From sequence record ON239131: a stretch of DNA of 30,272 nt; one strand, given 5' to 3'. This document shows positions 11,329 to 13,344 of the stretch, in pieces. The notes beneath the pieces were generated by a model. That model was not told the DNA's origin and did no database searches. It was given only the letters and a program-made list of their open reading frames with translations. Positions within the stretch are counted from its first letter, which is position 1; each line of letters starts with the position of its first letter. Made by a program: the position numbers and the translations under genes. This DNA comes from Escherichia phage S164.

Positions 11329-11932
11329 TTCGCGCCTGCTGCCGACCGGCTCATCACCGCTTGAGGTCGCCGCCGCAAAAGCCTGTGCGGAAATTGAAAA
11401 AACGCCGGTCAGTATTCGTGAGCTGTGGAACCCGGACACCTGCCCGGCAAATCTGCTGCCGTGGCTGGCGTGGTCATTTTCGGTTGACCGCTGGGATGAT
11501 AAGTGGCCGGAAGCGACAAAACGCGCTGTTATCCGCGATGCGTATTTCATTCACTGCCATAAGGGCACTATAGGCGCAATCCGGCGTGTGGTGGAGCCGC
11601 TCGGCTATCTGATTGAGGTGAGGGAGTGGTGGCAACTCAACGAGGAGCCGGGGACGTTCCGCATCGTTGTTGGCGTGCTTGAGCAGGGTATTACCGAGGA
11701 AATGTATCAGGAGCTGGAGCGTCTCGTTGCTGATGCAAAACCTGCAAGCCGCCATCTGACGGGACTGGCTATCAGTTTAAGTACAACCGGCAACATTTTT
11801 GCCGGTGCGGGATGCTATCACGGCGACGCCCTGACGGTTTATCCCTACACCCCGGAGGCCATTATTGTCGGAGGGGATTATTTCCCGGCCTCGGCCATTC
11901 ATTTAATTGATAACCTGAGAGTAAACGCATGA
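11321..11932 (+). CDS. I: Baseplate / tail protein I
   Basis: 203 aa; ATGAGTGA overlap with the J stop; position between J and H. Confidence 0.8.
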   Translation: MSDSRLLPTGSSPLEVAAAKACAEIEKTPVSIRELWNPDTCPANLLPWLAWSFSVDRWDDKWPEATKRAVIRDAYFIHCHKGTIGAIRRVVEPLGYLIEVREWWQLNEEPGTFRIVVGVLEQGITEEMYQELERLVADAKPASRHLTGLAISLSTTGNIFAGAGCYHGDALTVYPYTPEAIIVGGDYFPASAIHLIDNLRVNA

Positions 11933-13344
11933 CAGTGAAATACTACGCCATTCTGACTAATCAGGGCGCGGCACGGCTGGCTAACGCGACGATGCTCGGA
12001 AGTAAGCTGAATCTGACGCAAATGGCCGTTGGTGATGCGAATGGTGTCTTGCCGACACCAGACCCGGCACAGACAAAGCTGATTAATCAGAAACGCATTG
12101 CACCGCTGAATCTTCTGAGTGTTGACCCGAACAACCAGAGCCAGATTATTGCGGAGCAAATCATCCCTGAGAACGAGGGCGGATTCTGGATCCGTGAGAT
12201 TGGGCTTTATGATGATGAAGGCGTACTCATTGCGGTGGCGAACTGCCCGGAAACGTACAAACCGCAGTTGCAGGAAGGCAGTGGTCGTACCCAGACTATC
12301 CGCATGATTCTGGTTGTCACGAACACCGAAGCCATCACGCTGAAAATCGACCCGTCGGTGGTACTGGCGACCCGTAAATACGTGGATGATAAGGTCCTGG
12401 AATTAAAGCTGTATGTGGATGACCAGATGAGAAACCACATTGCCGCACAGGATCCTCATACCCAGTATGCACAGAAACATAATCCGACATTTACCGGAGA
12501 ACCAAAAGCGCCGACGCCTGCCGCAGGAAATAACACCACGCGGATTGCGACTACTGCGTTTGTTCAGGCCGCTATTACCGCTCTGATTAACGGTGCGCCA
12601 GCCACGCTGGACACACTGAAAGAAATTGCCGCAGCCATTAACAATGACCCGAAATTCAGTACCACCATTAACAATGCGCTGGCACTAAAAGCCCCGCTGT
12701 CGAGTCCGGCACTCACCGGAACGCCAACAGCACCTACTGCGGCACAGTCGGTCAACAATACACAGATTGCCACCACGGCTTTTGTGAAATCAGCAATTGC
12801 GGCAATGGTGGGTTCTGCCCCTGCGGCACTGGATACACTGAATGAACTGGCGGCGGCGCTGGGGAATGACCCTAACTTTTCAACAACAGTGCTTAATGCA
12901 CTGGCAGGTAAACAACCGCTGGACAATACGCTGACTAATTTGAGTGGAAAGGATGTAGCTGGTCTTCTCGCATACCTTCAATTGGGAGAAGCGGCAAAAC
13001 GTAATGTCGGCACCGGTGCAAACCAGATACCGGACATGAACAGTTTTACGTCAGGAAGTACGACAACAGCAGACTGGTACAAGTTACCTGGTGGGTTGCT
13101 TATTCAGTCAGGGATTAATGCGGTTGGTTATATTGGTTCGCCGTTTACTATCGGTCTTCCGGTTGCATTTTCGAACGCCAATTACCGCATAGTTGCCAGT
13201 TATGACAACGCGAGAGCTAACGCAACCTACGGTTTTGCAATGTCTGCCCTCCCGTCAACTGCATCAGCATTCACAATTAACTCAAGTTCAAATGCATCAG
13301 TCGGGCCGGTTTACGCTTACTGGATTGCAATCGGTAAATACTAA
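11929..13344 (+). CDS. H: Tail fibre protein (receptor-binding); shorter than P2 gpH, with a divergent C-terminal tip
   Basis: 471 aa; P2-like N-terminus ([20 protein letters not shown]...); internal ~55-aa tandem repeat; [22 protein letters not shown] motif; C-terminal tip of the LPGGLLIQ...WIAIG type. Confidence 0.85.
   Translation: [471 protein letters not shown]
12529..12921 (+). repeat. Two tandem copies of a ~55-aa repeat inside tail fibre H (about 12529-12699 and 12754-12921)
   Basis: Protein copies [55 protein letters not shown] and [55 protein letters not shown]; DNA copies are diverged. Confidence 0.8.

Follow-up and report, generated by a model that had tools for sequence, protein, structure and literature searches.

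The tail fibre gene H of Escherichia phage S164 (sequence record ON239131) was analysed within a window of 30,272 nucleotides (nt), to whose positions all coordinates given here refer. The tip of the H fibre is very probably one of two alternatives carried on a 1.35-kb cassette that is flipped by a Gin-like DNA invertase, which would give the virions of this phage two specificities. A preliminary description of the locus had assigned H a divergent short tip. That picture gives way here to a pair of alternative tips, of which H carries one, on a cassette made invertible by 26-bp inverted crossover sites and a Gin-like invertase. Downstream of H, the gene order is tfa1 (+), a convergent open reading frame (ORF) of 61 amino acids (aa) (-), the tip 2 ORF (-), the invertase gene (+) and the sheath gene FI. 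The features of the proposed switch are:

11929..13344, + strand, tail fibre gene H in the present orientation, a 471-aa ORF composed of the constant part and tip 1
12965..12990, no strand assigned, left crossover site of 26 bp (TTCTCGCATACC TT CAATTGGGAGAA) within codons 346-354 of H, with its core at 12977-12978
12979..14327, no strand assigned, cassette interior of 1,349 bp, bounded by the cores of both sites
12979..13344, + strand, variable part 1 (tip 1, aa 351-471), with matches to Gp53-like_C and to the tail-fibre families phrog_2557 and phrog_1396
13357..13779, + strand, Tfa1 (140 aa), predicted to serve tip 1 as its tail fibre assembly protein (Caudo_TAP, E 5.8e-31; phrog_188, E 2.5e-46)
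13760..13945, - strand, 61-aa partner gene of tip 2 (phrog_5400 positions 1-62 of 145, E 5.7e-17; weak match to phrog_188)
13932..14327, - strand, variable part 2 (tip 2), in frame with constant H after inversion; the reverse-strand ORF runs over 13932-14369
14316..14341, no strand assigned, right 26-bp crossover site, TTCTGCTAAACG AA CGTTTATGAAAA, inverted relative to the left site, with its core at 14328-14329
14397..14990, + strand, Gin-like serine DNA invertase with Resolvase and HTH_7 domains (phrog_125 DNA invertase, E 1.8e-101)

The crossover sites were resolved from an imperfect inverted repeat; they are imperfectly palindromic and of the hix/gix/cix type. The core dinucleotides of the left and right sites are complementary, as the inverted orientation requires. 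The half-site consensus TT(A/C)TCnnAAACC is common to the S164 sites and to the gix sites of phage Mu, which were read from the Mu record as TTATCCAAAACC TC GGTTTACAGGAA and its inverted partner. Against this consensus both S164 sites scored 16/20, the best values in the entire 30-kb window, and the next position scored 13/20. A perfect 14-nt inverted repeat (TGGTTTTTTACCGC / GCGGTAAAAAACCA) is also present within the cassette at 13395-13408 and 13845-13858, where one arm falls near the 5' end of tfa1 and the other near that of the 61-aa ORF, the reading frames of the two differing. It was considered as a secondary crossover site and rejected, since each arm resembles at most one half-site.

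The invertase yielded Pfam matches to PF00239 (E 8e-53) and PF02796 (E 6e-13) and is 81% identical to Mu Gin. Comparison with the Gin structure PDB 3UJ3 (E 6.5e-95) aligned residues 1-182, with the catalytic Ser9 present. The ORF opens at 14391 (MLMLIGY); the start of Gin corresponds to position 14397 (MLIGY), and the real start of the invertase is therefore probably 14397. In the 3UJ3 alignment, with the Hin-to-S164 numbering offset set by hand, the invertase has basic residues at K46, K47 and R50, and its motif EWEQAGRLL is the same as in Gin. The basic residues 47, 48 and 51 of Hin, together with Gln151, Arg154 and Leu155, contact Fis or the enhancer and are reported to be conserved in Fis/enhancer-dependent invertases (PMC3798978). 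Regarding the sequence characters of the Din family, the locus thus has a serine recombinase with a helix-turn-helix domain, inverted 26-bp sites with matching cores, and the residues for Fis/enhancer contact; strand exchange at the central dinucleotide is found in related loci rather than in the S164 molecule itself.

An in-silico inversion, in which both sites were cut at their cores, resulted in an uninterrupted 481-aa protein, H', with the constant part in frame with tip 2 (...LLAYL/RLAEAGNTSGKLALIGN...). Public assemblies were queried by the exact protein sequence of Tfa1, which returned ten loci (L008-L017). The P2-like loci L010 and L012 contain a 471-aa gene in the same orientation as S164. 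In L013, the Phage_tail_fib gene encodes 481 aa and a 135-aa orphan tip 1 adjoins the invertase gene; L013 is the predicted alternative state. Its crossover sites are hybrids (TTTTCATAAACG TT CAATTGGGAGAA and TTCTGCTAAACG AA GGTATGTGAGAA), in which outer and inner half-sites are exchanged at the 2-bp core, except for a C-for-G variant of L013's own in the outer-left half. Recombinant half-site hybrids are also present in L015-L017, and every junction lies exactly at the 2-bp core. L013, L015, L016 and L017 carry the cassette in the opposite orientation with respect to its flanks, and each of the three tail backgrounds represented among the loci occurs in both orientations. The 3.4-kb flanks of L012 and L013 are 97.6% and 98.9% identical and enclose the cassette in opposite orientations. 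By their sequences these two are essentially the same prophage, and the occurrence of one prophage lineage in both orientations argues that the inversion is real and recent in this phage lineage.

These results bear directly on a static mosaic, in which the tip would have been acquired once and would now be fixed, the invertase and the reverse-strand ORFs being fossils without present function. P2 does carry a gix-like fossil (TTATCGAATATCTCGGTTTACAGGAA) without an invertase, and the composition of the S164 cassette differs from that of the core, both as a static mosaic would have it. In S164, however, the invertase ORF and the two crossover sites are intact, the invertase being close to Gin as noted, and the tip on the reverse strand yields an in-frame fusion. 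One prophage lineage, moreover, occurs in either orientation with hybrid sites joined precisely at the core. These findings make a static mosaic very unlikely. It is extremely improbable that the opposite orientations in the public assemblies are assembly artefacts. Although most of the loci stem from draft short-read assemblies, the repeats are imperfect and, at 26 bp, far below read length, so that assemblers would have no reason to flip a unique segment of 1.35 kb. The placement of every junction exactly at the 2-bp core likewise speaks against an artefact, as does the finding of inverted states in four independent assemblies and three tail backgrounds; a mixed population that confused an assembler would itself point to inversion.

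In the proposed mechanism, the crossover site splits H into a constant part (aa 1 to ~350), responsible for baseplate attachment and the shaft, and an exchangeable receptor-binding tip. The cassette holds two convergent modules, one of tip 1 with the predicted 140-aa Tfa chaperone and one of tip 2 with its 61-aa partner. The invertase would cut both sites at the central TT/AA and rejoin them after a rotation of 180 degrees. The late operon would read in from upstream, so that expression would be limited to the module fused with constant H: H (471 aa) and Tfa1 in the present orientation, H' (481 aa) and the 61-aa protein in the other. A population of lysogens would then release two types of virions with different adsorption specificities, a form of host-range bet-hedging. 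We infer from the analogous systems the exclusive expression of the fused module, the chaperone roles, the dependence on Fis and an enhancer, and the different receptors of the two tips. The preliminary description had proposed a host range different from that of P2, which is plausible; two alternative specificities per phage would be the better statement.

Tip 1 matches Gp53-like_C (PF21882) with 48.9 bits (gathering threshold 24.9), and Tfa1 covers profile positions 5-130 of 131 of Caudo_TAP (PF02413). The tip 2 ORF is promoterless and would be silent in the present orientation, and BLASTP detected no similarity between tip 1 and tip 2. The 61-aa ORF is 31% identical to aa 34-67 of Tfa1, and its resemblance to Tfa proteins is confined to their N-terminal part. 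Tip 2 has 21 relatives at 64-88% identity, most of them in Citrobacter farmeri, with Yersinia represented as well; they carry PF21882 and are joined to varied N-termini, always at the site-encoded ...LAEAGNTSGKLALIGN.

Several observations weigh against a functional two-state switch in S164. The evidence for inversion comes from related loci, and the single S164 sequence cannot reveal heterogeneity at the level of reads. Retrieval by exact Tfa1 sequence biases L008-L017 towards identical cassettes, with the boundary positions unaffected. A simple scan of 12900-15100 gave no sigma-70-like promoter, including for the invertase. A pair of Fis motifs lies 48 bp apart at approximately +91/+139 of the invertase gene, and the best pair in Mu gin lies at approximately +88/+136; this crude scan returned many candidates with similar scores in a coding-constrained region and is too unspecific to demonstrate an enhancer element. 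Regarding the second module, the 61-aa ORF has no Pfam match and does not belong to Caudo_TAP, the C-terminal region of which it lacks. Tip 2 matches Gp53-like_C with E 5e-4 and 20.9 bits, below the Pfam cutoff of 24.9 bits, and an AlphaFold2 model of tip 2, built on a 14-sequence alignment, was unusable (mean predicted local distance difference test score, pLDDT, of 33).

The points concerning the second module are those that an ON/OFF or decaying switch would lead one to expect, that is, one in which inversion takes place but only the tip 1/Tfa1 state is infectious, tip 2 and its partner being degenerate. The match of the 61-aa ORF is confined to positions 1-62 of a 145-position family, and a partner without the Tfa C-terminal region could leave the second state with a poorly assembled fibre. 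Such degeneration is nevertheless unlikely in view of the relatives of the pair. In Mu-type prophages of C. farmeri, a 61-aa gene (L020:4180-4365) that is 92% identical to that of S164 lies behind a fibre gene with a tip resembling tip 2 (~70% identity; 27.8 bits for Gp53-like_C, which exceeds the cutoff) and overlaps this fibre gene by 14 nt, as in S164. There the pair sits in the expressed position, and no invertase gene was called in the retrieved loci. The maintenance of the fibre together with the 61-aa gene indicates a conserved unit under selection rather than debris. Furthermore, tip 2 has 62 columns that do not vary among 14 relatives. From these comparisons, the 61-aa partner may represent a minimal class of fibre chaperone that works without the conserved Tfa C-terminal domain.

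The constant part of H comprises the following additional features:

11929..12378, + strand, N-terminal baseplate-attachment domain of H, aa 1-150 (Pfam Phage_tail_fib, PF12571, E 3e-62)
12481..12699, + strand, shaft repeat unit 1, aa 185-257, from self-alignment
12700..12921, + strand, shaft repeat unit 2, aa 258-331, from self-alignment; exactly one 74-aa unit is absent from pro483 and MET_P1_103_31

H has the Phage_tail_fib domain of a P2-type tail fibre, the corresponding place after the baseplate genes J and I (a Tail_P2_I gene by Pfam, 11321-11932, lies directly upstream) and a Caudo_TAP gene next to it. It departs from that type in the C-terminal receptor-binding region: H is 47% identical to P2 H (NC_001895) over aa 1-354, where the homology ends, and aa 385-469 match Gp53-like_C (E 1e-12), which is unrelated to the P2 tip. 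The preliminary description was accordingly right about the length of H (471 aa, compared with 669 aa in P2), its conserved P2-like N-terminal region and its different tip domain. It also held that the 3' part of H and the region beyond it are richer in A+T, which agrees with the G+C content: the fraction is 0.471 in the cassette interior (12979-14327), 0.523 in the constant part of H, 0.527 in the whole window and 0.57-0.58 in the neighbouring V-I and FI-FII genes. Of the tandem repeat it reported, the two copies stand (BLOSUM62 local score of 225 between the units, compared with 35 +/- 6.6 in 1000 shuffles), whereas the unit measures 73/74 aa, the length of ~55 aa given for it being that of the conserved core. 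The single copy in P2 H (aa ~246-330) aligns with both units of S164. A 22-letter junction motif in H had been regarded as retained from P2; it has no match in P2 and begins a class of tips present in other phages, namely pro483, Cartapus, SfI/SfII/SfIV/SfV, ENT90 and phi80 (55-74% identity). The first codons of the motif are encoded by the left crossover site, and the motif, judged by this placement, is the mark of a recombination site and not of P2 heritage.

S164 thus shares with P2 H/G the N-terminal domain, one shaft repeat unit and the place after J and I, and the C-terminal 68 aa of Tfa1 are 41% identical to P2 G. P2 differs in the long, unrelated tip of its 669-aa H and has neither an invertase nor a second tip; it carries Z/fun between G and FI, where S164 has the invertase gene. 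Within P2 H, at aa 375-383 (positions 2358-2383 of the NC_001895 locus), the gix-like sequence mentioned above differs from Mu gixL by three mismatches. Its sequence is consistent with a fossil site and fits the long-standing view that such sites mark exchange points in fibre genes.

Among close relatives, the backbone of S164, a Peduovirus, is ~97% identical to that of phage pro483 (KR073661) over 92% of window positions 1-25000. H loses its homology to pro483 at the crossover site; the outer half-sites of pro483 are identical to those of S164 and its invertase is 96% identical, but its cassette is different. The invertases of pro483 and related invertase-bearing Peduovirus prophages are 96-99% identical to that of S164. 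The order I, H, cassette, invertase, FI is shared by S164, pro483, KC618326 and MET_P1_103_31, the last three differing from S164 in the cassette between the cores. Compared with L010, a P2-like prophage less closely related to S164, the nucleotide identity is 55-74% in gene I and in H up to aa ~135, 88-97% in the shaft and 100% in the cassette, and falls from 93% to 67% along the invertase gene. By these identities, H is a mosaic in three tiers, an N-terminal domain that follows the phage backbone, the shaft and the cassette. Regarding the shaft, two repeat units are present in S164, KC618326 and L010, and one unit, with a hybrid junction, is present in pro483 and MET_P1_103_31, which suggests that shaft length varies by unequal exchange between the repeats. 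The copy number varies among phages with 96-97% identical backbones.

The same cassette occurs behind fibres of other tail types. It is present in prophages with a Mu-type baseplate (L008 and L016; Gp45/Gp46/Baseplate_J/Gp48), where the whole fibre measures 218-226 aa, and in L009, L011, L014 and L017 (Sheath_initiator/Baseplate_J/Phage_Wedge1), where the fibre in the tip 1 state measures 265 aa. The fibres of both backgrounds consist of a small constant part and the same tips as in S164. Between S164 and L008, L009, L010, L012, L013, L016 and L017, the 1,349-bp interior shows 0 mismatches; the flanks are 87-93% identical to S164 in the P2-like loci and unalignable in the other two backgrounds. 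Although the same cassette flips there, the invertases of the Mu-type and Wedge1-type backgrounds are only ~54% identical to that of S164. On the right, identity stops no more than 1-2 nt from the 2-bp core; on the left, it stops inside the 12-bp outer half-site. The inner half-sites travel with the cassette, and the outer half-sites differ by background. An apparent extension of the homology in blastn, 100-250 nt into the invertase gene of L008/L009, was discarded: binned alignment gave ~70% identity there, which points to ordinary gene conservation in the 5' region and not to a mosaic breakpoint within the invertase gene.

An identical interior between diverged or unalignable flanks indicates horizontal mobility of the receptor-binding module, whose limits lie at the crossover sites. 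Together with the break in homology to pro483, this bears out the horizontal exchange of the receptor-binding module put forward in the preliminary description. A more specific proposal, which is tentative and on balance doubtful, is that the cassette acts as a mobile tip cartridge that would move from one prophage to another in the same host, with the invertase exchanging it at the crossover sites; this would be a naturally occurring recombinase-mediated cassette exchange and not homologous recombination. Draft assemblies, those of E. coli among them, contain the cassette in at least 93 index blocks, and the flank of L011 is 100% E. coli. The cassette was absent from INPHARED phages, PLSDB plasmids, 5,426 complete RefSeq E. 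coli genomes and IMG/VR, where only conserved ends or the Tfa C-terminus matched, and a scan of genome contigs with tip 1 gave three weak loci only.

Towards the right end of the window, two ORFs on the + strand (28630-29385, 251 aa; 29454-30125, 223 aa) had no Pfam or PADLOC match. Both are located close to where P2 has its tin/old cargo hotspot and may on that account be unknown accessory or defence genes.

The principle of switching fibre tips has been known since Mu, P1 and p15B. A close counterpart of the S164 locus is the G segment of Mu with Gin (S/U, S'/U'), which likewise has a constant 5' fibre part, a 26-bp site within the gene, two convergent tip-plus-chaperone modules and the invertase gene just outside the right site. 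S164 differs from Mu in that it is of P2 type, both in its fibre base and as a phage, the cassette measures 1.35 kb instead of ~3 kb, and the core dinucleotides are TT/AA instead of TC/GA. The tips of S164 are short Gp53-like domains, and its second chaperone has 61 aa, compared with ~177 aa for Mu U'.

By their descriptions, P1 C/Cin, e14 P/Pin, p15B Min and carotovoricin Er follow the same principle of a constant fibre part, alternative 3' parts and a Din-type invertase (PMC4272514, PMC4270481). More than two sites are present in p15B and in one prophage of enteropathogenic E. coli (EPEC), whereas the S164 window contains exactly two. In P2-like prophages of EPEC E2348/69, phase variation based on inversion has been shown experimentally (PMC4272514), and invertases beside swapped fibre genes in P2-like phages have already been noted (bioRxiv 10.1101/2024.10.15.618418). 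By analogy, the S164 switch is one that works like Mu G/Gin, P1 C/Cin and e14 P/Pin, and it adds a case to these systems rather than a concept. Its least ordinary element, as far as the compared sequences tell, is the identical, core-bounded cassette in three unrelated tail lineages.

For annotation, the finding means that phages of this kind should be credited with two alternative tail fibre proteins, of which the deposited orientation hides the 481-aa form; the tip 2 ORF is usually annotated as a hypothetical protein of 145 aa with a spurious Met start. For host-range prediction and phage engineering, two adsorption specificities would have to be expected from one genome if the cassette is switched as proposed, and the crossover sites would offer natural in-frame swap points for receptor-binding modules. 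In terms of evolution, the presence of an identical cassette behind three unrelated fibre bases represents a clear case of a receptor-binding module that moves as a unit delimited by recombinase sites.

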